This document shows positions 1-62,693 of a stretch of 64,000 nt of DNA, piece by piece. Position numbers and translations under genes: made by a program. Source of the stretch: a phage; the NCBI GenBank assembly GCA_012401045.1, contig GCA_012401045.1_4704.2; one strand, written 5' to 3'. Each line of letters opens with the position of its first letter. Position 1 is the first letter of the stretch. Under the pieces are notes generated by a model. It was given only the letters and a program-made list of their open reading frames with translations. It had not been told where the DNA came from and ran no database searches.

Positions 1-37
1 CAGGCTCTCCAATGAAGGAGAGCCTGTGGCCGTCAGT

Positions 38-739
38 TTAAGATGCAGATAATCTCGCGTACTTCTGGCGAACATGGTTCTTACGGCGAACTTCGTCGTC
101 CTCGTCACGCCATTCGAGGTAAGCAACGAATCGACGTAACTGCGCCGCCGTCATCGTTGACGAGCGGTCTTCTACGTCTAGAACAACGTAACGAACATCA
201 CCAACGCCATCGCAATCAACGTAACTGAATACCAAAAGGCCATCGCCGTACTCAACGATGGTAACTTCGAATCGTTTATCGAACAAATAAAACAGTTCCG
301 ATTCAATGATCATCGGAATGACGCATAAATCAGCACGATTGAGGATTTCCATCATCACCCGTAACGCGCGAGGAGTATGGCGAGCGAACTGGTCGTTAAA
401 ACGTTGTTTCATCGCTTGTTCCACGCCATCTGTTTTTGTTCCAAACCACGGACGTACTACAGATTTCGGTGGTGTAAGACGAAAGCGATATGCTTGTATA
501 AACAACAGAATATCAGCGACGTTAGGAAATTCTTCCTGGTCTTCGTATATCTTGCGGATAATATCCGGAATCGTAACCATCAAGTATTTCTTATCGCCTC
601 CCACTTTCTCGAGATTAGCAATATGTCCTTCTACCACAGGCTGGTAAACGAAATTATACCAATGACGGTATCTTTCGGTACGTTGGTAGTTTGGGATAAA
701 ATTAAGAATAATACTCACTGCGTGTTTTAACGGGTTCAT
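38..739 (-). CDS. hypothetical protein (233 aa)
   Basis: Long ORF at the end of a co-directional minus-strand gene array; no recognisable catalytic motif. Confidence 0.45.
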   Translation of the reverse strand: MNPLKHAVSIILNFIPNYQRTERYRHWYNFVYQPVVEGHIANLEKVGGDKKYLMVTIPDIIRKIYEDQEEFPNVADILLFIQAYRFRLTPPKSVVRPWFGTKTDGVEQAMKQRFNDQFARHTPRALRVMMEILNRADLCVIPMIIESELFYLFDKRFEVTIVEYGDGLLVFSYVDCDGVGDVRYVVLDVEDRSSTMTAAQLRRFVAYLEWRDEDDEVRRKNHVRQKYARLSAS

Positions 740-753
740 CGGAAGGATCCTTC

Positions 754-1188
754 TTATGTTTTAATATGCACATCGTCAATCCCCTCGGTAATCCAGCCGA
801 TGGGAAGGACAATCGTTGTTATCGTGTTATGGGTGTAATGATTGAGAAAGTGGAAATAGTAATTTTTGTTAGACTGTTCGATCCGTAGGTCGAGGTGCGC
901 GTCTTCAGGTAACCGTAACCAAGCACCGTACAGTTCATTAAACTTACGCTGAATTTTACCGGGGTTCATTGGAACCCCACGACCACGACGATGTAGCTGA
1001 CGTAATGATTCAATCAAACACTCAGAGATACCCGTTGTCGTTCCGTTATCGCTTGTATCAATAACGATGAACTCTCGTGACCCACGACCGAGATAAAAGC
1101 CAGCGACAAAAGCTGCAGCAACAAAAATTATCGTACCGATACCAATATACCAATAGTAAGTATCCATAACGACCTCACTTATACCCAA
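754..1188 (-). CDS. hypothetical membrane protein (144 aa, N-terminal TM helix)
   Basis: Hydrophobic N-terminal segment YWYIGIGTIIFVAAAFVAGFYL; 10-nt overlap with upstream gene suggests co-translation. Confidence 0.45.
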   Translation of the reverse strand: MGISEVVMDTYYWYIGIGTIIFVAAAFVAGFYLGRGSREFIVIDTSDNGTTTGISECLIESLRQLHRRGRGVPMNPGKIQRKFNELYGAWLRLPEDAHLDLRIEQSNKNYYFHFLNHYTHNTITTIVLPIGWITEGIDDVHIKT

Positions 1189-1712
1189 TAGTCGGCAAGC
1201 GGTTTTACCTTATTAATGGGCAACTGTACTTTACCGATGTTCTCTACATCCGCATCAGCGTAGAGAACAATTTTATCACCGTCTCTTTCCCAACGAATAA
1301 TGAATCGACCAGGAAGAAGATTACTCTGTTCAAGAGACGCAGTAACCTGTTGTGTTAAAACAGACAACCAAGCAGGCATCAGTGTTGCAACATCTAAGTC
1401 ATTTGACCATTCAGCGCGTTGCTCCACTGGACGTAACATACGTTCGACGGTGCGTTGAACTGTTGCGGTGATATAGCCTTTATCTTCGTCACTGATTGGA
1501 TCAGGACGAGACACAAAACGTTCAGCAGGCTTGTGGGTAATATATTCATGCAAATCGATGAGTGGTGTTGTCATAGTACTCGCTCCATCAGAATGTAATT
1601 GGGTAACCCGCAGGGTTGTCTGCATGCTATTCAGAAGCGCAAAAGCGCCATAAACAACAATGATACTAAGTACGACCAAAACAGAAATCATTAATGTGTA
1701 TTGCATTGTCAT
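1179..1712 (-). CDS. hypothetical membrane protein (177 aa, N-terminal TM helix)
   Basis: Hydrophobic N-terminal segment LMISVLVVLSIIVVYGAFALL followed by soluble domain. Confidence 0.45.
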   Translation of the reverse strand: MTMQYTLMISVLVVLSIIVVYGAFALLNSMQTTLRVTQLHSDGASTMTTPLIDLHEYITHKPAERFVSRPDPISDEDKGYITATVQRTVERMLRPVEQRAEWSNDLDVATLMPAWLSVLTQQVTASLEQSNLLPGRFIIRWERDGDKIVLYADADVENIGKVQLPINKVKPLADYWV

Positions 1713-1807
1713 CTCCTACTCACACGTATCTTGAAGATTAGTTAAAATCAACAAAAGAAAAAACAATATAAAGCAAGGTCCTCTGATATCAGAGGACCTC
1801 GGATCAA

Positions 1808-2464
1808 TTAGCTTGCAGCTTCTTCATTTGTATCAGGTTTGCTTCCCCCTAACAAACCGTCAAACAGACCCGTATGTTTCAGGTAGAAGAGAGCGATAGC
1901 GCCCATTGCTGCTGCGCTCGTCGCCGTTAACGCAACCCCGGCACGATACTGCCATTTACGGTCGGGCTTTTGATCAAGAGCCATACGACGCATGTATTCA
2001 GCCTCTGCTTCATTCCGATGAATTTCGGATTCAGCCAAGCGGGCTAAGGTATCGCGGTCAAGGTTATCATAACGTACGTTCATGGTGGTTTCCTCTTGTT
2101 TGGAAGTTGATTGCTTAGTGGATTCTTGGTCAACAGTCGTTTCAGATGGTTCAAACGGCTGGTTGTTCATTTTCTGATCTTTATTGGTCATGATAGACTC
2201 CTTCGATTTTTGAGACGAAATTGATTTAAACCATCGTGGATGGCGGTATTCAGTTTTACATGTGCAGTTAAGTTTCTCGTGCAGGAAAGCGTAAAAACGT
2301 TTTGCGCCTACACGTAAGGCTTTCAGCATTACCCATCCACGAGCACTCAAACGGTGTAGCTGTTGCGGTATGTCGAGTTTCCTAGCCAAGCGAAAGTATC
2401 TTTCAATCACTTCGATAGGAAACCATTGTTGTTCCACATCGGTGAGACTGAAAGTCTTATCCAT
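1808..2464 (-). CDS. hypothetical protein with C-terminal TM segment (218 aa)
   Basis: ATG at 2464; C-terminal hydrophobic stretch VALTATSAAAMGAIALFYL; conserved 24-bp promoter-like motif lies 24 nt upstream. Confidence 0.5.
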   Translation of the reverse strand: MDKTFSLTDVEQQWFPIEVIERYFRLARKLDIPQQLHRLSARGWVMLKALRVGAKRFYAFLHEKLNCTCKTEYRHPRWFKSISSQKSKESIMTNKDQKMNNQPFEPSETTVDQESTKQSTSKQEETTMNVRYDNLDRDTLARLAESEIHRNEAEAEYMRRMALDQKPDRKWQYRAGVALTATSAAAMGAIALFYLKHTGLFDGLLGGSKPDTNEEAAS

Positions 2465-2488
2465 GATTGAAATCTCGCTGGCTTACTT

Positions 2489-2512
2489 CACTTAGGTAAT
2501 ATAGCCGTGAAA
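2489..2512 (-). promoter_or_regulatory. conserved 24-bp promoter-like motif, copy 1 (minus-strand reading TTTCACGGCTATATTACCTAAGTG)
   Basis: Identical 24-mer also at 15021-15044; close variants at 43179-43202 and 51362-51385; each lies 25-140 nt upstream of a minus-strand gene start. Confidence 0.45.
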
Positions 2513-2614
2513 AATGTTGGATTAAGTTAAATACCGCAACCGCAGCTAATTTTATAGGCTTTTAGCCTAAACCAATCATCTTCGGAATCATCATCTTTGA
2601 AACAGGAATCTATC

Positions 2615-3436
2615 ATGGAAAAAGTATTTGTTTGTAAGTTGTTTACCAACGGCAATAGCCAACCAATGTATCTGACCGATCCTGTTCTAGGTAATCGGAA
2701 CAGTACCGTATTCAAAGAGGCTTTCGAATACGCTAAAAATAAAGCCGTGAGAACACTGACGTCTGATGACTGTATCAACGGTATCACGTGGGCAGAGTTA
2801 ATCGGTGATGCCGTTCGACACTTCGTTCGGGATGCGAGAAAACGGGAAATCTGTCTCACGACTATTGTTGTGCGTGAAAACGCAGAAATTTTATCAAACG
2901 TTTTGGTTGATTTTAATGACGTTTGCGTGTTTAATCCAGAGAACACGTTTGAACAATACCTTACTGCCCTGAACAACCAGCTCGGTAAAGATATTCATCC
3001 CGAATTCGCCAAGTTAACATATCAGTTACTTTTTGACGACGTCGATCCAAATACGAAGATCGATACCAGCTTATCGCCCCTGGTAAAGAAATACGGATCG
3101 GTTCTCGCTACGGCAACACCCACCACCGATGGCGGTTATGATATCGAATTGGATGGTCCATTAAAAGAACAAGAGCCTACTGGGGTTAGGGCGGTACATC
3201 ACAACCTCGTCGTTAAATCTGATGGATGCGATGAACATTACGCTATGATAAACGATGAAAACAATTACCGTTTAAGTCAAGCGATTGGTGTTCTACGCTA
3301 TACCGAACCCACTGTTGTAGACGATTATACATCGACAACAACGCACACCACGTGTTTCATTTTCATCTATCCCAATGAAAGTGTGTACATTACCGACTGC
3401 TATGGCAATACCGTAGATAGCTTACGTCGTTATTGA
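2615..3436 (+). CDS. hypothetical protein (273 aa)
   Basis: ORF track starts at TTG 2597; in-frame ATG at 2615 preceded by AGGAA SD at 6-nt spacing; followed by a clean intrinsic terminator. Confidence 0.55.
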   Translation: MEKVFVCKLFTNGNSQPMYLTDPVLGNRNSTVFKEAFEYAKNKAVRTLTSDDCINGITWAELIGDAVRHFVRDARKREICLTTIVVRENAEILSNVLVDFNDVCVFNPENTFEQYLTALNNQLGKDIHPEFAKLTYQLLFDDVDPNTKIDTSLSPLVKKYGSVLATATPTTDGGYDIELDGPLKEQEPTGVRAVHHNLVVKSDGCDEHYAMINDENNYRLSQAIGVLRYTEPTVVDDYTSTTTHTTCFIFIYPNESVYITDCYGNTVDSLRRY

Positions 3437-3442
3437 TTATCG

Positions 3443-3470
3443 AGCCTGTCCTTCGGGGCAGGCTTTTTAT
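3443..3470 (+). terminator. rho-independent terminator (hairpin AGCCTGTCC-TTCG-GGGCAGGCT followed by TTTTT)
   Basis: GC-rich stem with tetraloop and T5 tract immediately after the stop of the 2615-3436 gene. Confidence 0.7.
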
Positions 3471-3545
3471 GCTGTTAAATATCAGGAATAAGAATTAACA
3501 AAATAGGAAAATGGTGTGAATATAACACAAAGGAGGGAGATGATC

Positions 3546-3662
3546 ATGTTACTCATTTTAATGGAGAGAGCATTGCTGGCGGGTATCTGCGCATTCTCTG
3601 TTAAACACGCTGTTGCTATCATGGCTGAAGAAAGGCGTAATACGCATAATGTATTACGCTGA
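3546..3662 (+). CDS. candidate small ORF (38 aa, hydrophobic peptide MLLILMERALLAGICAFSVKHAVAIMAEERRNTHNVLR)
   Basis: Strong SD AAAGGAGGGAG 9 nt upstream of ATG; below ORF-track size cutoff; hydrophobic N-terminal half; expression unproven. Confidence 0.25.
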   Translation: MLLILMERALLAGICAFSVKHAVAIMAEERRNTHNVLR

Positions 3663-3772
3663 AAACACTGTGTGCATTAGTGTATGACGAGAAATCGTCG
3701 AGGCCCCCGTCTTCACGAGGGCCAACACCTATGCATGATTATTCATCGTCTGTTAAACAAAAGGTTATAAAC

Positions 3773-4081
3773 ATGAGCAATTTGAACGTTGAATTTACTT
3801 CAACAACGCCTGTCATGAATGGTGTTGGCACTGAAACCAAAATCGTATTAGAACCCATTCCAGGGTTACGCGATCTCGGTGATTTTTATCCACTGATGCC
3901 GCGTATACGGAAGGCCTTAAACAGTATCGATCTTGATTCCAATAAAGATTTCCAACACGATACAGAAAATACCGATCATGTATTGCTGCCATCAGGGATC
4001 GCAAAATTCACCTACACGCAAACATTGAAAGCCTCTGATGGTGAAATCCGTCGTTTTATCGTTGAAGTAGAAAGCGCATAA
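3773..4081 (+). CDS. hypothetical protein (about 102 aa from ATG 3773; ORF track extends to GTG 3680)
   Basis: The GTG at 3680 and ATG at 3731 lack an RBS; ATG at 3773 has AAAAGG upstream; bidirectional hairpin downstream. Confidence 0.4.
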   Translation: MSNLNVEFTSTTPVMNGVGTETKIVLEPIPGLRDLGDFYPLMPRIRKALNSIDLDSNKDFQHDTENTDHVLLPSGIAKFTYTQTLKASDGEIRRFIVEVESA

Positions 4082-4085
4082 AAAC

Positions 4086-4117
4086 CATCCTCCCTTCCCT
4101 TACGGGTTGGGAGGATG
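4086..4117. terminator. conserved GC-rich hairpin family, copy between convergent genes
   Basis: CATCCTCCC-TTCCC-TTAC-GGGTT-GGGAGGATG; minus-strand reading has GTAA loop and is followed by GGTTTTT. Confidence 0.5.
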
Positions 4118-4134
4118 AAATATGCCGTTAAACG

Positions 4135-4764
4135 TTATTCAACAAACCCTGCATTCAACAGATTGTCGTAAACACGATTAGCGACATCAACAGGAGAATG
4201 TGTGTTACTGGTATCTATACGCAGCGTTTTCGCGTCGCCGAGATAGTCCATAAAATCCATGTAACGATAACGTCGTTTATTGAATGTCGCTTCATCGATG
4301 TTATCAAACATCTGATGTTTAGCGTGACGAACACGGAACCGCCTTAAATACGTAGGATAGTCGATATCCAGATAAACATAGTAAGACGGCATGATAATCG
4401 ACGGTAGGTTCGGCAACAATGCGTCAAACAACTTAACGTTGGCATCATTAACCTGATAAACATACGTCGAAGCAATCGAACGATCGCTAAGCACAGTCTT
4501 CCCTTCGTTAAGGGCTGGATGAATCACCTTGTTGAAGAGATGATTACGTTGCGACATCATCGCCAATAGTTCAGTTTCTGGATCGAATCTGTTCGTTGGT
4601 GTCTGATCTTCCAGGATAAGTTTACGAATGGCTTCTCCGTAGAGCGTACCACCGGGTTCACGTACGACACAGACGTTGTTTAAACGACTGTGTAAAGACG
4701 AGATAACCGAACTCTTTCCTGAATAATCCAGACCTTCAATAACGATATATTTATTACGAGACAT
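4135..4764 (-). CDS. tmk: thymidylate kinase (dTMP kinase)
   Basis: P-loop YIVIEGLDYSGKSS and REPGGT motif collinear with bacterial Tmk; ATG at 4764 with GGAG SD (ORF track begins at TTG 4776). Confidence 0.85.
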   Translation of the reverse strand: MSRNKYIVIEGLDYSGKSSVISSLHSRLNNVCVVREPGGTLYGEAIRKLILEDQTPTNRFDPETELLAMMSQRNHLFNKVIHPALNEGKTVLSDRSIASTYVYQVNDANVKLFDALLPNLPSIIMPSYYVYLDIDYPTYLRRFRVRHAKHQMFDNIDEATFNKRRYRYMDFMDYLGDAKTLRIDTSNTHSPVDVANRVYDNLLNAGFVE

Positions 4765-4780
4765 TCCCCGCTCCAATTAA

Positions 4781-6034
4781 CTACTTCGTTTTCGCCGTTA
4801 TCGGCTGCGATACTGTAATCTCGACCCGATCGACATCGGTACGTTTAACGATGATAAGGCTGCGTTCATCACCGAATGGTTCTGAGATCTTACAAGCCTC
4901 TTTAAGATTTTCGAGAATCGTGCCATGGGGTTCAAACACCGCAAAACCGGAACTAGCGTCGATTCTTATTAAATATACACGCACATTGTTTACGGTAATG
5001 GTGTCATCCGTCTTGAACCCACAGCAGGAGGGTAGACAGAACTGACCATTAACGCAATTAGCTAAGTATGCCTCACCACCGAACATTTCTATTAACGTCA
5101 CCGGTTTAAATGTTTTCTCTGGGAAAGCATTATTAAGAATATCGTTTCCATTCACAAACCAGATCGTTACTTTATCTTCGGAATACGCTAGTCTGTATGG
5201 TTGGGTTGCGGACGCCTGCGCTTTATGCTGGTTAAATAACTTTGATTTTGTCGCAATCACAGCACGACCTTGGGCGTCAAAGTACAGAACTTCATACCCA
5301 ACACATCCGATAAACACGCGACGGTTATTAAGTTCCGGAATTCTGACTACTAACGCATTACCATCTTCCGTCGGTGTAATACCACGTAGGATGATAGATT
5401 CGTTGTTCAATGTTGAGTTGCTCACGATGACGCTTCGCATTACCGCTGGCGACACTATTTCATCTGCTGCAGGTTCAAGTTGCTCCGCTGTTACAGTCAC
5501 GGATCTGTCTTCCTTTTCAACTGGCCAGTTGAAAAGGATTGTTTTATTAAGACAAACAATTGGGGTAATTTCGCCGATACTCCGTATCTTGACTGAGGGG
5601 CAATTGCACACATACGGAACAAAAACATCAATATCGTTGGTCGCTTCTTCAAGCATGCTAGCATACGCCATTGCTTCGGGACGATCGGTGAGATGAATAA
5701 CAGCATAGACGATATCGTCTTTTAACCACGCACGTTTCACTCGTCCTATAACACGATTGATGTCTACAATAACTCTCTGAGCTTTCATCTCCCATTTTAC
5801 TGCATCAGTACCACCCGCAACCACGTTCGGTTTATCCGTGTTTACACGATGAAGGAAACTATTGATTATTTCCTCATCGATCTGGATATCCTTTCTCGCA
5901 AAATTCAACAACGGAATAACGAACTCATTGTTACCGCACTTCTCTGCTCCGCGAATGATAGGAGTACACTTCTTGTTCTCATCTGATCCCCAGATAACTT
6001 TAGTCATTTTCTGTTTCCTTCTTGGGTTTTGCAC
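4781..6034 (-). CDS. hypothetical protein (417 aa), Cys-rich C-terminal half
   Basis: Long ORF in the recombination/nucleotide-metabolism cluster; no metallophosphatase motif order recognisable. Confidence 0.5.
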   Translation of the reverse strand: MQNPRRKQKMTKVIWGSDENKKCTPIIRGAEKCGNNEFVIPLLNFARKDIQIDEEIINSFLHRVNTDKPNVVAGGTDAVKWEMKAQRVIVDINRVIGRVKRAWLKDDIVYAVIHLTDRPEAMAYASMLEEATNDIDVFVPYVCNCPSVKIRSIGEITPIVCLNKTILFNWPVEKEDRSVTVTAEQLEPAADEIVSPAVMRSVIVSNSTLNNESIILRGITPTEDGNALVVRIPELNNRRVFIGCVGYEVLYFDAQGRAVIATKSKLFNQHKAQASATQPYRLAYSEDKVTIWFVNGNDILNNAFPEKTFKPVTLIEMFGGEAYLANCVNGQFCLPSCCGFKTDDTITVNNVRVYLIRIDASSGFAVFEPHGTILENLKEACKISEPFGDERSLIIVKRTDVDRVEITVSQPITAKTK

Positions 6035-7485: not shown

Positions 7486-9942
7486 TTAAATAATCGTGAC
7501 GTGTTCGTTATACGTTTCAGGGAGAATGATGTTCGTTTTATCAAGAACCATACACTCGGCTTTACGGAATGATGCATGGTTGATCACATAGTGACTGATG
7601 AACCACACCTGGCTTACGCGGTGACCATCAACCAGACGACGAACAAAATCCATGGCATTAGATTGGTGCTGTGGATCAAATGTTGATGCGAATTCATCTA
7701 ACATCAACGGATAATCCGTGAACCCTTTGTAATGCATCATCGCGATGATGAACGCGATATTGATAATTTCCTTTTGTCCCTTACTCCCATAAACAATATC
7801 TTTTCGCGGTGTCGGATACTTCTCAGTTAAAAGCGGAAAACGATAGTTCAATCCTTGCGCGTCGATAGCACACGGGAGTATCTGAAGTTGGTATTCCCAA
7901 ATACTCGCAATGATGCCGTTCATGTACTCAACGAACGCGTTGATGGGACCCGCAATTGTTTCGGCAATCAGTCCGTTGGATGGACTCAACTCATCCAGAA
8001 CAAGTTGTGCGTAACTGAGCTGTTCTTCCACCTCTTTTTGTGTCGTTTCCAACTGAGCCAGAAGCTGCTGGTCGGTTTTAGCTTCCTGTAACTGCTGTTC
8101 GACATGACTTATTCGGCGAACTGTATCAGACATCGCAGCACGTAACGATTTCGTGTAGAGGTGTTGCAGATACTCTAACCACAGTTGCGTTAACGCTTTA
8201 TCGCTGTTATCAGAACGTACCTGATCTTCCATAATCGCCGTAATGGTTTCCAATCTACCTTCCGTAGCTGTGATGGCTTGTGTTAACCGCTCAACGGTTG
8301 TTAACAACTCTGTCCTGTTCTTATAAAGCAATTCTCGACGTTGCTGTAACGGTTCAACATCAACCGCTTGTACCCGTTCGAGCATACCTTGAAGATGCTT
8401 CCGTTCCTGTTCGGCTTGTGTGTAACGCGCAAGTTTCTCAAACGCAAGCAACCAATCGTTAATGATTCCAATGCTGCGGAATCCTAAACCGTTTTTACGT
8501 CCTTCTTCCAGCAGATTATCCCACATGGGTTTAATGGCGTAATAATCCTTCGTCCAACGTGTTAACTGACGATGCTGTTCCATCCAGAGCGTATAGCGCT
8601 GAACCTTCTCACTAAGCTCAGCTAACGATTTCTCTTGTTCTTCAACCCAAGCACGGCCTTTCTGAATGCGTTGTTCAATACTCGCTTTGCTGGTCTTTTC
8701 TGTCTCACCAACGTGAAAGCGATAATTGCATTTTGGACAGCTGGTCTGGGGTTGATGATTCAGGTGGTCAAGATGCGCTTCCAAATCGGCTAACGCATGT
8801 TTCGCGTTACGCAAACGCATTCTTGCCGCCTCTTCCTCCTTGATGTAAGCTTCAGCATCGTAAACATGATAGGTGTTGTCGGTATCAATCCATTCTTGGA
8901 GTAATTCTGTTAACGGAGCCTGAACTTGCGTGAGCTGTTGTAAACAAACCGCAGCGTCCAGATTCATTGTTAAAAGCTCACCTGGATGATCTTGCTGAAG
9001 TTGTTCGTCCAAACGTGCAATGCGGGCTTTAATTTGATCGATATCACCTTCGCCAGACTGTTTCAACTGGTCAAGGATATTATCGATACCCAACAGCTCG
9101 TCAACCTGACTTTCGAGTTTCGCATTCGCATTCGCGAGTTGTTCTCTTAGTTCAGCCAGATTCTGCTGTTCTTGTTGCGATGTTCCTCCTTGGTAACGAA
9201 CAACCGCACGAAGAAGCTCGCGATTAAAATGATGGGCACGTTGTGCGGATTCCAGAAGCTGTCGTTGATCAACATCGCTATCGAATAACGGCAATCCCAT
9301 CATCGCTTCGAGCGCTGAGCGTTGCTGCTTTAACTCCGCTTCCAATCCCTGATGGTCGGTGCCGGTGTATTTCGCTTCAATGCGTTGTGATGTTTCAACC
9401 AACTTATTCAGTGTATGCTCATTCACCGCTTTCAGTGAACGTACTTGTTGCTTAACCACCTGAAACAACTCGAGTGCGTAATCGACGTTAACCGGACATA
9501 TCTGCGTTAATCGTTCGCGACGTTTCATCGGTCCCATTTCGGTGAACTGATAAGCCGTTTCGTAACCTAACAACAAACGAATGGTGTCATCATTAAGTTC
9601 AAAATGTTCTTCGATCAGTTTCCACTGGGCCGGTTGTGTGCCACCACCATTCAGGTTATCGCTATCGTTAACGTAGAACTCATGCTTAAACCCTTTTTCT
9701 AAACGACTGATAAGACGGTATTGCTTATTACGATGTTCGCAGCGGTACTCGTAATACCCGTCTTTATCAAAATCGGCACGCTCAGGAACGGTCGGATACA
9801 GCAAAGGCAATAGACTACTCTTACCGGAACCATTACTACCTAAAATGAGTTGTACGGGATTATCTGGCCGGATGACCAGCTCCCGAATCATCCCGGTATC
9901 AAAACGATTGAATCCACGTAAGTGGAGATAGGTGCATCGCAT
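7486..9942 (-). CDS. Rad50/SbcC-like recombination ATPase
   Basis: Walker A GSNGSGKSS, long coiled-coil middle with CPKC zinc-hook motif, C-terminal SKGQK signature-like and LMLDEFAS Walker B; start taken at ATG 9942 (MRCTYLHLRGF), track start 10005. Confidence 0.7.
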   Translation of the reverse strand: MRCTYLHLRGFNRFDTGMIRELVIRPDNPVQLILGSNGSGKSSLLPLLYPTVPERADFDKDGYYEYRCEHRNKQYRLISRLEKGFKHEFYVNDSDNLNGGGTQPAQWKLIEEHFELNDDTIRLLLGYETAYQFTEMGPMKRRERLTQICPVNVDYALELFQVVKQQVRSLKAVNEHTLNKLVETSQRIEAKYTGTDHQGLEAELKQQRSALEAMMGLPLFDSDVDQRQLLESAQRAHHFNRELLRAVVRYQGGTSQQEQQNLAELREQLANANAKLESQVDELLGIDNILDQLKQSGEGDIDQIKARIARLDEQLQQDHPGELLTMNLDAAVCLQQLTQVQAPLTELLQEWIDTDNTYHVYDAEAYIKEEEAARMRLRNAKHALADLEAHLDHLNHQPQTSCPKCNYRFHVGETEKTSKASIEQRIQKGRAWVEEQEKSLAELSEKVQRYTLWMEQHRQLTRWTKDYYAIKPMWDNLLEEGRKNGLGFRSIGIINDWLLAFEKLARYTQAEQERKHLQGMLERVQAVDVEPLQQRRELLYKNRTELLTTVERLTQAITATEGRLETITAIMEDQVRSDNSDKALTQLWLEYLQHLYTKSLRAAMSDTVRRISHVEQQLQEAKTDQQLLAQLETTQKEVEEQLSYAQLVLDELSPSNGLIAETIAGPINAFVEYMNGIIASIWEYQLQILPCAIDAQGLNYRFPLLTEKYPTPRKDIVYGSKGQKEIINIAFIIAMMHYKGFTDYPLMLDEFASTFDPQHQSNAMDFVRRLVDGHRVSQVWFISHYVINHASFRKAECMVLDKTNIILPETYNEHVTII

Positions 9943-11164: not shown

Positions 11165-11199
11165 CTCCTTCCCCGGCCTTGACGGCTAGGGAAGGAGGA
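11165..11199 (+). terminator. GC-rich hairpin terminator (variant of the conserved hairpin family)
   Basis: CCTCCTTCC...GGAAGGAGG stem followed by ATTATAGTTTATTTATT. Confidence 0.5.
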
Positions 11200-11213
11200 T
11201 TATAGTTTATTTA

Positions 11214-14938: not shown

Positions 14939-15020
14939 TTAAAAGATCCTCTGTTTTTCACGTTAATTAAACAACGTATTGATTTCTATTTGACAGAACA
15001 CGAACATTGTACGTATCTAT

Positions 15021-15044
15021 CACTTAGGTAATATAGCCGTGAAA
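15021..15044 (-). promoter_or_regulatory. conserved 24-bp promoter-like motif, copy 2
   Basis: Identical to copy at 2489-2512; about 80 nt upstream of the 14938 start. Confidence 0.45.
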
Positions 15045-15151
15045 GGATTTGTGTTACTGTAAGGGTTTTGTTTTTAAGAAGGGATGGATTTAGAAGAGGT
15101 GTTTCAAGGAAGGTAAACGAGGATAGGTATTTTGATTTAAGTAAGTAAGAT

Positions 15152-15249
15152 GTTATCTGTATTGTCTAAGTTATCTTGTTTATCTTAGGTTTAAGTTGTT
15201 TTTATTTATCTTGTTTGTATGTTTAAATTAGATCAATAAGCTTATCTTC
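15152..15249. repeat. iteron-like short direct repeats (five TTATCT-containing units) in AT-rich non-coding region
   Basis: GTTATCTGT, GTTATCTTGTT, TATCTTAGG, TTATCTTGTTTG, CTTATCTTC within about 100 bp. Confidence 0.35.
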
Positions 15250-15263
15250 AAAACAATGGATAA

Positions 15264-15311
15264 CATGTGTTTACTACGCTCGTTGAGTTATAACTCAACG
15301 GTAACACATGT
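15264..15311. repeat. nested inverted repeat (ACATGTGTT ... GTTGAGTTATAACTCAAC ... AACACATGT)
   Basis: 18-bp perfect palindrome flanked by 9-bp inverted arms, inside the gene-free region. Confidence 0.35.
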
Positions 15312-15719
15312 CATCTGTGCATTACACTCCGTTACATGCTAGTTAACAACGTTTTGTGAAGACAAAACGTTCAACTCAAAAAACATTTGTGATACTCTTC
15401 TTCACGTTGTTCATCAGAGTATCTCGTCTATACTCATTGCATTCGTATACGACATAACCGTTATACGCTAACGCTACGCTTATAGCTTGATAACTCTAAG
15501 GATAAAAACATAAACTCGCTTCGCTCGTTTAGTTTTTCTTTTTCTTAGAGTTATCCTGTTGCTCGTCTCTAAAGGACTTCGCTCCTCCCCCGTCCCCCGA
15601 AGGGGCCGAGGTCGTGGAAATTTTACTTTCCAAATACATTTACAACATCTGTAAACTTTTACTCCAGGTACTTAATCTTATCATTAGAAATTATAAAAGA
15701 GAATAAACACAAACATAAA

Positions 15720-15752
15720 CCTTCCTCCTTCCCTTACGGGTTGGAGGAAGGG
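15720..15752 (-). terminator. conserved GC-rich hairpin family copy downstream of the 15763-16656 gene
   Basis: Minus-strand reading CCTTCCTCC-AACCC-GTAA-GGGAA-GGAGGAAGG followed by TTTATGTTTG. Confidence 0.5.
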
Positions 15753-15762
15753 AGAGATTAAA

Positions 15763-27674: not shown

Positions 27675-27706
27675 CCCTCCTCCAACCCGTAAGGGAAGGA
27701 GGAGGG
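27675..27706. terminator. conserved GC-rich hairpin family copy (CCCTCCTCC-AACCC-GTAA-GGGAA-GGAGGAGGG)
   Basis: Between convergent genes; GNRA-type GTAA loop closed by CCC/GGG. Confidence 0.5.
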
Positions 27707-27715
27707 AATATGCTG

Positions 27716-36773: not shown

Positions 36774-36809
36774 CCTTCTCCCCAACCCGATGAGGGAAGG
36801 GGAGAAGGG
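36774..36809 (+). terminator. conserved GC-rich hairpin family variant followed by T-rich tract
   Basis: CCTTCTCCCC-AACCC-GATGA-GGGAA-GGGGAGAAGG then CTATGCGCTATTTAATTTATT. Confidence 0.5.
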
Positions 36810-36828
36810 CTATGCGCTATTTAATTTA

Positions 36829-43236: not shown

Positions 43237-43266
43237 CCTCCCCCAACCCTTGCGGGCTGAGGGAGG
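43237..43266 (-). terminator. GC-rich hairpin (family variant) downstream of the capsid-like gene
   Basis: Minus-strand CCTCCC...GGGAGG stem followed by TTTCTATGCC. Confidence 0.45.
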
Positions 43267-43365
43267 CTGACTTATGTATCACGGTGCCGGATGAATGTCC
43301 GGTGCAATGAAACCATCCGCAACGTTGTCATCAAGAATATCATCCAACGAAGCAGCTACGGTAGT

Positions 43366-48008: not shown

Positions 48009-48037
48009 ACGCAAAAAAAAAAAAAGATTGTACGGTT

Positions 48038-48069
48038 CCCTCCTCCAACCCGTAAGGGAAGGAGGAAGG
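48038..48069. terminator. conserved GC-rich hairpin family copy, flanked by A13/T13 homopolymer
   Basis: CCCTCCTCC-AACCC-GTAA-GGGAA-GGAGGAAGG; preceded by 13 A at about 48012-48026. Confidence 0.5.
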
Positions 48070-48085
48070 TTTATGACCGCTTTGA

Positions 48086-49535: not shown

Positions 49536-50438
49536 TTACTTAGCCTTTGAGTTATACGGACTAACATGTTGTTGTACTCGTTGGATTGTATCGTAGTACG
49601 GGTTAAGTTGATTGAACATGTTGTTGTGTGGGTGATAGCCATATGGCGCATTTTGCCTTGTTGGTGAGAAACCTTGTTGAGAAGGACGGTTTGAATTAAC
49701 CGCGAGTACGTAGTAAACCAAATTTTGGCGGTCGAACGTTCCTTCGTTTTTGAAGGTGTCGGCGTAGGCGCTTACCGCTGGAGCGAGCCTATCACCATCG
49801 GTTGTAATGATTGTGCCATCGGGATAAACTTCCCGAACGACGCACCATGTTCCGATGAGAACATCTTTGGGTGATGTATTACCGTATCCGGTTGTAACGG
49901 TAAGGTAAGTATCGAACCCTTCAGAACAACAAGGATGACGATAGATGGGTCCTGTCATTTCCAGTCTATCGGTGTCACCGCATTTCTCTATTGAGAGCGA
50001 TGATGTGTCGGTTTTGAAATTGTCAAATTCTTTCTTTAAGTCGATTACGGGTTCTTTCGTATAGTACTTCTTGATTGCTTTGACGTAAAGATCGGGAACG
50101 GTTGTCAGCAATCCGTTATACCTGATTCTCAGGTTTTCGAGTAATCCAAAGATGCTCGCGCATGCCTGTTCGCGAGGTTTTGTAAGATAAGAGATCCCCC
50201 CAGGAACGCTGGGATCTTTGAGAAAGAAGATTGCGTTATTGTCGTTGTGCGATGCGTTGAAGAAAACGATTGATTCGATATATACGGAGCATAGGCTGTC
50301 GTTGGCGTCGTCAGATAACACCCAGATGCACTCATCGGTCGTCTTGTTTAAAAGTTCTGTTTTGTCGACCAAACGTTGTTTCATTGCGAGGAAATGTGCC
50401 TGTTGTTCAGCGGATAATTCACGATAAATGGTGGTCAT
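49536..50438 (-). CDS. hypothetical protein (300 aa), paralog of 50524-51306
   Basis: Shared motif IY-x-HP-x-C ... YLT-x-T-x-G ... REVYPDG-x-I; ATG with AAGGAG SD. Confidence 0.5.
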   Translation of the reverse strand: MTTIYRELSAEQQAHFLAMKQRLVDKTELLNKTTDECIWVLSDDANDSLCSVYIESIVFFNASHNDNNAIFFLKDPSVPGGISYLTKPREQACASIFGLLENLRIRYNGLLTTVPDLYVKAIKKYYTKEPVIDLKKEFDNFKTDTSSLSIEKCGDTDRLEMTGPIYRHPCCSEGFDTYLTVTTGYGNTSPKDVLIGTWCVVREVYPDGTIITTDGDRLAPAVSAYADTFKNEGTFDRQNLVYYVLAVNSNRPSQQGFSPTRQNAPYGYHPHNNMFNQLNPYYDTIQRVQQHVSPYNSKAK

Positions 50439-50523
50439 GTTGAGCTCCTTGATTACGATAAGGATGATTGCGGTTTTGTGGTGTTGGTAGGGCCCTAAAC
50501 AAATGAACCCTACTAATATTAGG

Positions 50524-51306
50524 TTAATCGGGATCGGCGTAGAAATGGTGAGGATAGCCGGAGTACGATCCCGCGTTACCGGTTATGGATTCTTTCTGGG
50601 AATCGACGACGAGTGCATAGAACTGTCGGGAATTTGTTAGCGTTGAGAAATAAGAGGAAAGGACTTTTTCATTCAACGCATCGCAAGGTAGACAGGTGCG
50701 ACCGCAAAACGTCACGATACGGCCGTCAGGATAGATCTCACGAATCATTCTCCACTCGCCAATATCGACTGGTGATGGCGCTGCTACACCACCTGTTATC
50801 GTTAAGTAACGATCGTACGTGGTATGGCATTCAGGATGAACGTAAATCGGTTGGGCATCAATACTATCGTTTTCTGTTTGATCTTTATTCACGTATACCT
50901 CAAGGTAGATTGTTGGTAACCCGGTTAGAACGCCAGTGTCACGACGTTTTTTGGTAATCCGGGGACGGATATTATCGAGCACGCCTTCCAGTTTTTCTGC
51001 GACTTCGTCAGCCGGTAATATATACCCGTATGTTGGTTCTGGGTCATCACCGTGGCTAAATAAGATACGACAGTCGTTTTTATTAAATTCTATATCTTCA
51101 GGTGGGAAGATGATGACGCGAACCGTATGGCGTTCTGCGATATAAAATCCTTCAGGCCCCTCAGTTTTGGTAAGTGTAAAGGACCAGGATGAATGATCTT
51201 CAAGTGACGTGCCTGCCAGGAAAAAGTCCGCCCGAATTGGTGCGTTCCATTTCGCGATCATATTGGCGTGACCAATAACGCCTAATTTTTGATAAATATC
51301 TGTCAT
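50524..51306 (-). CDS. hypothetical protein (260 aa), paralog of 49536-50438
   Basis: Shared Cys/His-containing motif; ATG with GAGGA SD; promoter-like motif copy 4 upstream. Confidence 0.5.
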   Translation of the reverse strand: MTDIYQKLGVIGHANMIAKWNAPIRADFFLAGTSLEDHSSWSFTLTKTEGPEGFYIAERHTVRVIIFPPEDIEFNKNDCRILFSHGDDPEPTYGYILPADEVAEKLEGVLDNIRPRITKKRRDTGVLTGLPTIYLEVYVNKDQTENDSIDAQPIYVHPECHTTYDRYLTITGGVAAPSPVDIGEWRMIREIYPDGRIVTFCGRTCLPCDALNEKVLSSYFSTLTNSRQFYALVVDSQKESITGNAGSYSGYPHHFYADPD

Positions 51307-51361
51307 GATTGTATCCTCGGTTATTAAGAGAATTTACAACGATAACAGTAACCGCTGTTAT

Positions 51362-51385
51362 CACCTAGGTAATGTAGTCGCGAAA
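51362..51385 (-). promoter_or_regulatory. conserved 24-bp promoter-like motif, copy 4 (variant TTTCGCGACTACATTACCTAGGTG)
   Basis: About 55 nt upstream of the 51306 start, immediately downstream of a family hairpin. Confidence 0.4.
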
Positions 51386-51419
51386 TAAACTGGAGTAATG
51401 CGAAATAAGACAGCATAAG

Positions 51420-51451
51420 CCCTCTCCCAACCCGTAAGGGAAGGGAGAGGG
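51420..51451 (-). terminator. conserved GC-rich hairpin family copy
   Basis: CCCTCTCCC-AACCC-GTAA-GGGAA-GGGAGAGGG just past the stop of the 51456-52823 gene. Confidence 0.5.
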
Positions 51452-62545: not shown

Positions 62546-62652
62546 TTGGGACTCCTACGTAGGAAAATCTTGGCGGGTGATCATGTCCGCCATTTACCTT
62601 CTGAACCGTTGATTCAGAAGTCAAAAGATAACCGGATACCAACGCCATAAAC

Positions 62653-62684
62653 CTTCCTCCAACCCAACAGGGAAGGAGGAAGGG
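62653..62684 (-). terminator. conserved GC-rich hairpin family copy (loop variant AACA)
   Basis: CCTTCCTCC-AACCC-AACA-GGGAA-GGAGGAAGG; minus strand followed by TTTATGGCG. Confidence 0.5.
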
Positions 62685-62693
62685 ATATGGTGA

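Follow-up and report, generated by a model that had tools for sequence, protein, structure and literature searches.

An early transcription unit of Goslar-like phages encodes three predicted membrane-anchored proteins

The left end of a 64,000-nt stretch of phage DNA (contig GCA_012401045.1_4704.2 of GenBank assembly GCA_012401045.1; the window) carries a leftward transcription unit that consists of an early promoter, gene A, an attenuator, genes B and C, gene D for a soluble protein, and a closing terminator. Over bases 1–5485 the window shares 96.3% identity with Escherichia phage vB_EcoM_Goslar, a jumbo phage of 237 kb that infects E. coli and forms a nucleus, and window position n corresponds approximately to Goslar position n+64. 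Genes A, B, and C are Goslar gp004, gp003, and gp002, all three annotated as "hypothetical protein," and D is gp001. The unit is transcribed early in Goslar, and the products of A–C are predicted to be held in a membrane with their soluble parts in the cytoplasm. We tentatively favor, at rather less than an even chance, the interpretation that they form an accessory module of early infection, confined to Goslar-like phages, located on the cytoplasmic side of the inner membrane and involved in exclusion or anti-defense.

Gene Organization and the Early Promoter

A first-pass annotation of the window had described three consecutive membrane-protein genes in 1179–2464, forming the first operon after a promoter-like motif. 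Three such genes exist, but this interval holds only A and B, and C lies just outside it (Table 1). The location was roughly correct and the interpretation reasonable; it is partly confirmed, with three corrections: C was missed, the operon is split and extends to gp001, and the anchor of A is weak. The start of B was placed at 1706, rather than at 1712 as in the open reading frame (ORF) list, because of an AGGAG-N6-ATG arrangement and the Goslar annotation. All four genes are coding and under purifying selection, with ratios of nonsynonymous to synonymous substitution rates (dN/dS) of 0.02–0.26. Measured against Goslar and two further relatives, dN/dS is 0.02–0.10 for A (0–0.04 over the N-terminal 91 codons), 0.09–0.15 for B, 0.08–0.10 for C, and 0.12–0.26 for D.

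The position of the genes downstream of a promoter motif is borne out. The motif CTAYATTACCTARGTGA lies at 2488–2504, and its AT-rich core TATATTAC (2496–2503) ends 32 nt upstream of the ATG of A. The window contains four copies of CTAYATTACCTARGTGA (2488, 15020, 43178, and 51361), all on the minus strand, where 0.05 are expected. The bare 8-mer shows no significant enrichment in the window (5 matches versus 1.7 expected); the extended motif alone does, and a literature search on the octamer returned irrelevant papers only. The whole Goslar genome has 13 copies (≤3 mismatches), again all on the minus strand. By annotation, those examined precede gp246, the chimallin (nuclear shell protein), with gp247; gp165; gp040/gp039; and several blocks of small genes. 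In the published Goslar virion table, gp247, gp165, and gp039 carry the label non-virion RNA polymerase (nvRNAP). The promoter core is also kept, as CTATATTACCTA, upstream of A', the homolog of A in a distant relative (contig L010, described below).

Lineage-specific AT-rich motifs near -10 are early promoters of the injected virion polymerase in jumbo phages (review, PMC7598289). The motif upstream of A shares the features of this class: it is AT-rich and recurring, it is co-oriented with presumed early operons, and transcription downstream of it is early and independent of the nucleus and of the nvRNAP. The closest likeness is to the early operons of phiKZ-like jumbo phages, which are served by the virion RNA polymerase; there, too, an AT-rich motif stands before co-oriented blocks, agrees with early transcripts, and is matched by hairpin terminators after the blocks. 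The differences are that the motif sequence is specific to the Goslar lineage, that the start site here is predicted, and that the content of the block has no homolog in phiKZ or other deposited phages.

Transcription at the Vesicle Stage and Attenuation

The timing of the unit can be read from published Goslar RNA sequencing (RNA-seq) at 30 min, with versus without knockdown of the shell protein ChmA (doi 10.1101/2023.09.20.558163, Supplementary Table 2). Knockdown arrests infection at the vesicle stage, and the transcriptome then corresponds, according to that paper, to 5–20 min of normal infection (doi 10.1101/2023.09.20.558163). In this table gp001–gp004 have log2 fold changes of +0.2 to +1.3 on knockdown; they stay transcribed in vesicle-arrested infection, in agreement with the early expression first proposed for them. 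The divergent gp005 and gp006–gp013 drop 2^3- to 2^7.5-fold. Across gp001–gp050 the retained blocks are gp001–004, gp014–021, gp037–040, and gp044–047, with the genes between them lost, and the four motif copies in the range of the window coincide with the starts of retained early blocks. Because these blocks each start at a motif copy, the motif behaves as an early promoter and A–D as early genes. The correspondence between promoter and early block can help in the annotation of Goslar-like genomes.

The unit is more complex than an operon of three genes. A, B, and C share the early promoter, as proposed, but a terminator splits A from B, and a fourth, non-membrane gene (D) follows C. The hairpin between A and B has a folding energy of -22.5 kcal/mol (z = -6.4) and is an annotated terminator in Goslar. 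It has the properties of an intrinsic terminator, namely a GC-rich hairpin, a U-tract, and reduced transcription downstream. Read density in vesicle-arrested infection falls from 1243 reads/kb for gp004 to 479, 516, and 394 for gp003, gp002, and gp001, an approximately 2.6-fold drop; in the control infection it goes from 1353 to 838–958 (gp003–gp001). Since there is no second copy of the early motif between A and B, expression of B–D probably depends on read-through past the terminator of A.

The divergent neighbors gp005–gp007 (window 2615–4081, plus strand) are lost in vesicle-arrested infection and are therefore nucleus-dependent genes; gp7 has been reported among the proteins present at >200 copies per Goslar virion. 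The 150-nt region 2465–2614 thus divides the early leftward unit from a late rightward one.

Predicted Membrane Anchors

Hydropathy was scored as the Kyte-Doolittle (KD) 19-mer mean and on the summed Hessa scale, and topology was predicted from these scales and the positive-inside rule. The N-terminal segments of B (residues 7–25; KD 2.78, Hessa sum -2.55 kcal/mol) and C (residues 8–26; KD 2.24, Hessa sum -0.67 kcal/mol) are strong candidates for transmembrane (TM) helices. Residues 177–195 of A (VALTATSAAAMGAIALFYL) are rich in Ala, Gly, Ser, and Thr and are marginal (KD 1.76, Hessa +1.09), and the counterpart of this segment in the distant homolog from L010 (IGLYTLGAGAIAGIGYAGY) falls below the usual thresholds (KD 1.12, Hessa +4.5). 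Of the one C-terminal and two N-terminal TM segments in the first-pass annotation, the latter two are therefore strong and the first is weak. D has no hydrophobic segment by hydropathy. AlphaFold2 places helices over residues 2–39 of B and 169–197 of A, both with low confidence.

Lys and Arg residues follow the helices of B and C and precede the segment of A, in both lineages; beside the helices of B and C, basic residues occur C-terminally only. Because of the positive-inside rule, the soluble parts of all three proteins are predicted to be cytoplasmic, which would leave only 4–23 residues to translocate. The chance of a run of three such genes depends on the threshold. With a loose one (KD ≥ 1.6, passed by 14–17% of ORFs) P = 0.18 for the window and 0.47 for Goslar, and with a strict one (Hessa sum ≤ 1.1, passed by 11/254 ORFs) P is about 0.015.

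In its general plan A resembles the tail-anchored proteins ElaB and YqjD (DUF883), which combine a cytoplasmic N-terminal region with a long helix and a Gly/Ala-rich C-terminal segment with basic flanks. It differs from them in having no DUF883 match even at E ≤ 1, a weaker anchor, and a distinct conserved N-terminal domain. Two internal ATG codons of A, Met92 and Met128, are preceded in frame by Shine-Dalgarno sequences. The GAGGAAAC-N4-ATG arrangement of Met128 is conserved at Met132 of A' in L010 (about 9600–9620), although the proteins are only ~26% identical. Gene callers took the Met92 start in L023 and P0003, though the long ORF is intact and under selection. A may thus also give rise to shorter, anchor-only isoforms.

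Virion Content and Lysis

In the published virion mass spectrometry (Table S4), gp003 is represented by 1 peptide, at ~0.26 copies per virion. This level is within the range of non-virion contaminants, among the nvRNAP subunits and other contaminants. Neither gp001, gp002, nor gp004 is among the matches listed in that table, and going by those matches A, B, and C are not virion proteins. The single gp003 peptide in the virion preparation shows that the B protein is made. Altogether, the hydropathy scales predict hydrophobic helices, clearly for B and C and marginally for A, and what was found for the unit was neither late expression nor virion incorporation.

A series of small bitopic membrane proteins is reminiscent of a lysis cassette, and the in-frame alternative starts of A recall holin/antiholin pairs. 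A could accordingly be a holin or antiholin with possible dual starts, and B and C spanin-like proteins or regulators of lysis timing. We consider this very improbable. The unit has an early promoter and is expressed at the vesicle stage, not with late genes. Goslar has two annotated endolysins, gp024 (at 17.7 kb, a distance of 15 kb) and gp098 (at 110.5 kb, a distance of 108 kb), and neither adjoins A–C, in line with the earlier remark that the genes are far from the endolysin and no obvious lysis cassette. There is no lipoprotein signal and no Cys in the N-terminal helix of either B or C, no holin or spanin family was matched in PHROGs or Pfam, and the domains of B and C are predicted to be cytoplasmic, not periplasmic. 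The comparison with lambda S105/S107 extends to the presence of an in-frame internal start with a good ribosome-binding site in a membrane-protein gene. The putative isoforms of A, however, would differ by 91–127 residues rather than two, and A is expressed early and outside any endolysin context. A role in lysis therefore appears unlikely from these features, and lysis timing, given the early expression and the predicted cytoplasm-facing domains, is the least likely of the roles that the first-pass annotation suggested for a putative membrane complex, the others being superinfection exclusion and sealing of the injection channel.

Host Targets

The cytoplasmic domains could instead act on a host machine. 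According to this explanation, which is modeled on the early host-takeover proteins of other lytic phages, A–C would be tethered to the membrane and inhibit, for example, the divisome, the FtsH/HflKC protease, or a transporter. Early timing, predicted cytoplasm-facing domains, and confinement to a clade of enterobacterial phages are all consistent with it, as is one sub-threshold Pfam match to the FtsH extracellular domain in P0015, a distant homolog of B. That match (FtsH_ext, PF06480; E = 2.6e-4, 21.6 bits versus a cut-off of 25.5) was rejected as an assignment: it occurs in one of six family members, and profile comparison (hhalign) with residues 1–130 of E. coli FtsH gave a probability of 0.2%. 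No other similarity to host-targeting families was detected in Pfam, PHROGs, NCBIfam, or PADLOC. SPO1 gp56-type division inhibitors offer a parallel in layout, with an N-terminal single-pass anchor, a small soluble domain, and a place in an early host-takeover block; there is no homology, and the host target and predicted orientation may differ. We judge inhibition of a host machine unlikely, with the proviso that it overlaps the accessory-module interpretation and that sequence cannot separate the two.

A relationship among the products themselves was also considered. B, C, and D have similar three-strand ends, and the idea that they are paralogs was discarded after hhalign gave probabilities of <1% and BLASTP gave nothing.

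Distribution and Divergence

Searches of 50,697 phage records by tblastn with A, B, and C returned Goslar alone, which places the three genes outside the chimallivirus core genome. The only relatives in a large protein collection are 76–99% identical, and IMG/VR yielded near-identical relatives only. An exhaustive HMMER scan with the B family gave one true remote homolog, P0015 (27% identity, full length); a second match was dismissed as a spurious repetitive protein. P0015 is encoded on the 255-kb contig L010, where the flanking core genes are as in Goslar. The contig carries homologs A' (227 amino acids), B' (173 amino acids), and C' (148 amino acids) in the Goslar gene order, at 24–31% identity, and a hairpin of different sequence with a T-run lies between A' and B', at the same position as in Goslar. 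D has no BLASTP match in L010, and three genes without similarity to D come after C'. Because the promoter, A, the terminator, B, and C are kept in L010 while D is replaced, they constitute a conserved module.

This arrangement bears on a simpler explanation, in which A–C have no joint function and are three unrelated orphans with chance hydrophobic segments in a variable region, A perhaps not being inserted at all. A run of three is not unusual at the loose hydropathy threshold, the A segment is marginal and sub-threshold in L010, a terminator stands between A and B/C, and the two parts differ in their pattern of divergence. It is nevertheless hard to reconcile with a gene order, promoter, and terminator position that are preserved at such low identity while downstream genes are exchanged, or with the value of P at the strict threshold. 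We regard the absence of any joint function as unlikely too.

Related contigs continue beyond the point where the window begins and reach a conserved DUF7194 gene in convergent orientation. The description of the unit as the "first" operon has no biological meaning, because it merely reflects the point at which the Goslar record was cut. At this end of the window (1–65 in L001; about 11700–11760 in L002–L004) a variable poly-T tract comes after the gp001 terminator and is followed by a convergent terminator. The aligned run is 10–17 T long; in some relatives 1–2 further T precede it, separated by a gap. The Goslar record is linearized inside this poly-T/convergent-terminator spot.

The neighboring DUF7194 gene is present in 288 phage records. 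At the syntenic site beside it, no comparable triad was found in Salmonella SPFM22, Serratia Moabite, Pseudomonas OMKO1, or Erwinia Asesino. Two of these four chimalliviruses carry an endolysin gene in the DUF7194 region.

A–C diverge faster than their surroundings. Among Goslar-like contigs, identity to Goslar is 83–94% for B, 85–89% for C, and 67–93% for D versus 97–100% for the flanking genes, and in L010 it is 24–28% for A/B/C versus 57–67%. Divergence is also uneven within the unit. Over B and the TM part of C (window 1050–1706), synonymous divergence from relatives is 0.7–1.5 (L002/L003 compared), and in A, the rest of C, and D it is only 0.08–0.3. These values suggest that the tract over B and the 5' end of C is mosaic or recombinant, alleles having been exchanged by recombination. 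As judged from such comparisons, fast evolution and a narrow range are typical of an accessory module engaged with the host or with competitors.

The Early Infection Vesicle

The membrane-bound vesicle of early infection was described with Goslar as the model phage, and the literature states that phage action on the vesicle membrane and the exit of mRNA are unclear. Against this background the unit offers three concrete candidates (early, non-virion, clade-specific, and predicted to be membrane-anchored and cytoplasm-facing) with promoter and attenuator defined. A, B, and C might be made by nearby polysomes and inserted into the vesicle membrane from the cytoplasmic side. Their proposed roles there would be to mark the vesicle, to tether ribosomes or chimallin, or to open it for mRNA exit or for hand-over of the genome to the nascent nucleus. 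Consistent with this, transcription of the genes takes place at the vesicle stage, polysomes have been reported close to the Goslar vesicle, as has localized early translation, and the very short translocated segments and predicted cytoplasmic facing are what insertion into a pre-formed vesicle requires.

Distribution argues the other way. A core step of the chimallivirus cycle is expected to use conserved genes, whereas A–C are absent from all other deposited chimalliviruses, have no positional analog in the four others examined, and evolve faster than the flanking core genes; their mRNA levels are also modest. A location in the vesicle, with any of the roles proposed there, seems to us quite unlikely. 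The fuller version, in which A–C are the first phage-encoded membrane proteins of the early vesicle, dock ribosomes or chimallin, serve mRNA exit or genome release, and have unrelated analogs in other chimalliviruses, is a distinctly improbable one.

A Model for the Accessory Module

The course of expression is well supported. Directly upon genome delivery, the injected virion RNA polymerase would start at the early promoter (2488–2512) and transcribe A. The A–B hairpin stops ~60% of transcripts, and those remaining probably read into B, C, and D and end at the second terminator, at the left edge of the window. If the accessory-module interpretation is correct, A would be tail-anchored, its N-terminal domain cytoplasmic and held by the weak, small-residue-rich C-terminal segment. 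B and C would be anchored N-terminally with their bulk on the cytoplasmic face, so that each of A–C would push only 4–23 residues across the bilayer. Early in infection the three proteins would work on the inner membrane of the host, in a dispensable conditioning of that membrane directed at the host or at competing phages. Their specific role would most probably be protection of the infected cell, either by excluding later phage genomes or by blunting a membrane-associated defense; roles in core replication or lysis are less likely. Were A–C to prove ordinary exclusion or anti-defense accessories, the gain would be modest, namely three new orphan families with a role.

Known parallels are T4 Imm and Sp, which are likewise small, early, non-virion membrane proteins of a virulent phage and are accessory rather than essential. 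No sequence or family match to them was found, Sp acts in the periplasm and B and C have a predicted cytoplasmic orientation, and exclusion by A–C is hypothetical.

Several observations weigh against the accessory-module interpretation. Neither experiment nor homology supports the proposed function. A, B, C, D, and their distant homologs have no usable match in Pfam, PHROGs, NCBIfam, or PADLOC; at E ≤ 0.1–1 in Pfam and PHROGs they do not fall into known superinfection-exclusion families (e.g., T4 Imm). Profile sequence searches of the PDB returned nothing, the structure models are poor, and fold searches with them were uninformative. The topology is a prediction from hydropathy scales and the positive-inside rule, and A may be merely peripherally attached or soluble. 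An interaction among A, B, and C is hypothetical, and transcription of A is set apart from that of B and C by the terminator. Known exclusion proteins that prevent injection often work on the periplasmic side of the membrane, which is not the side predicted for A–C. Two Goslar nuclei or several DNA foci have been reported within single cells, so exclusion, if it occurs, is not absolute. A search of the literature found no genome-wide fitness data for Goslar.

Table 1. Positions of the early unit, of the parts of its genes and products, and of recurring hairpins in the window
Feature	Position	Strand	Product (amino acids)	Details
Early promoter motif TTTCACGGCTATATTACCTAAGTGA	2488..2512	minus		Virion RNA polymerase type
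Gene A (Goslar gp004)	1808..2464	minus	218
A, conserved N-terminal domain				Residues 1–91
A, disordered polar linker				Residues 92–127; followed by a charged helix
A, internal start Met92	2189..2203	minus		AAGGAG (2198–2203)-N7-ATG (2189–2191)
A, internal start Met128	2081..2095	minus		GAGGAAACCACCATG, in-frame Shine-Dalgarno and ATG; would give a helix-plus-anchor isoform of 91 residues
A, C-terminal hydrophobic segment	1880..1942			Residues about 175–195, marginal; followed by an acidic 23-residue tail
Intrinsic terminator/attenuator between A and B	1774..1801	minus		12-bp stem, 4-nt loop, T-rich tail
Gene B (Goslar gp003)	1179..1706	minus	175
B, predicted N-terminal TM helix	1626..1694			Residues about 5–27
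B, remainder				Disordered 40–72; two helices, three strands, short helix
Gene C (Goslar gp002)	754..1167	minus	137	GAGG-N6-ATG start
C, predicted N-terminal TM helix	1090..1146			Residues 8–26
C, soluble domain				~110 residues; conserved SECL, IQRxFN, WxxEGIDDV
Gene D (Goslar gp001)	38..739	minus	233	Soluble; last gene of the leftward early unit
Closing terminator hairpin of the unit	1..26	minus		-20.4 kcal/mol, z = -4.9
GC-rich hairpin family, sites (about)	4090–4120, 11170–11200, 15720–15750, 27680–27710, 36790–36820
GC-rich hairpin family, further sites (about)	43245–43275, 48035–48070, 51420–51450, 62650–62685

Other Hairpins and Early-Motif Copies

A family of GC-rich hairpins, approximately CCYTCCTCCAACCC-NNNN-GGGAAGGAGGARGG, recurs in many intergenic regions of the window (Table 1) and is probably a shared terminator element. 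Early-promoter copy 2 sits at the gp021-proximal end of an 824-nt, ORF-poor stretch (14939–15762) that lies upstream of it and has no Rfam match. About 1.7 kb of the window (49536–51400) is absent from Goslar and contains, directly downstream of copy 4 (51361–51377), two ORFs of 300 and 260 amino acids without a Pfam match, which resembles extra early accessory cargo. Outside the window, gp182 (Goslar 165504–165968) has the most hydrophobic segment of the Goslar genome on the Hessa scale (summed, -3.42 kcal/mol). It stands directly behind a copy of the early motif and is a further candidate for an early membrane protein.

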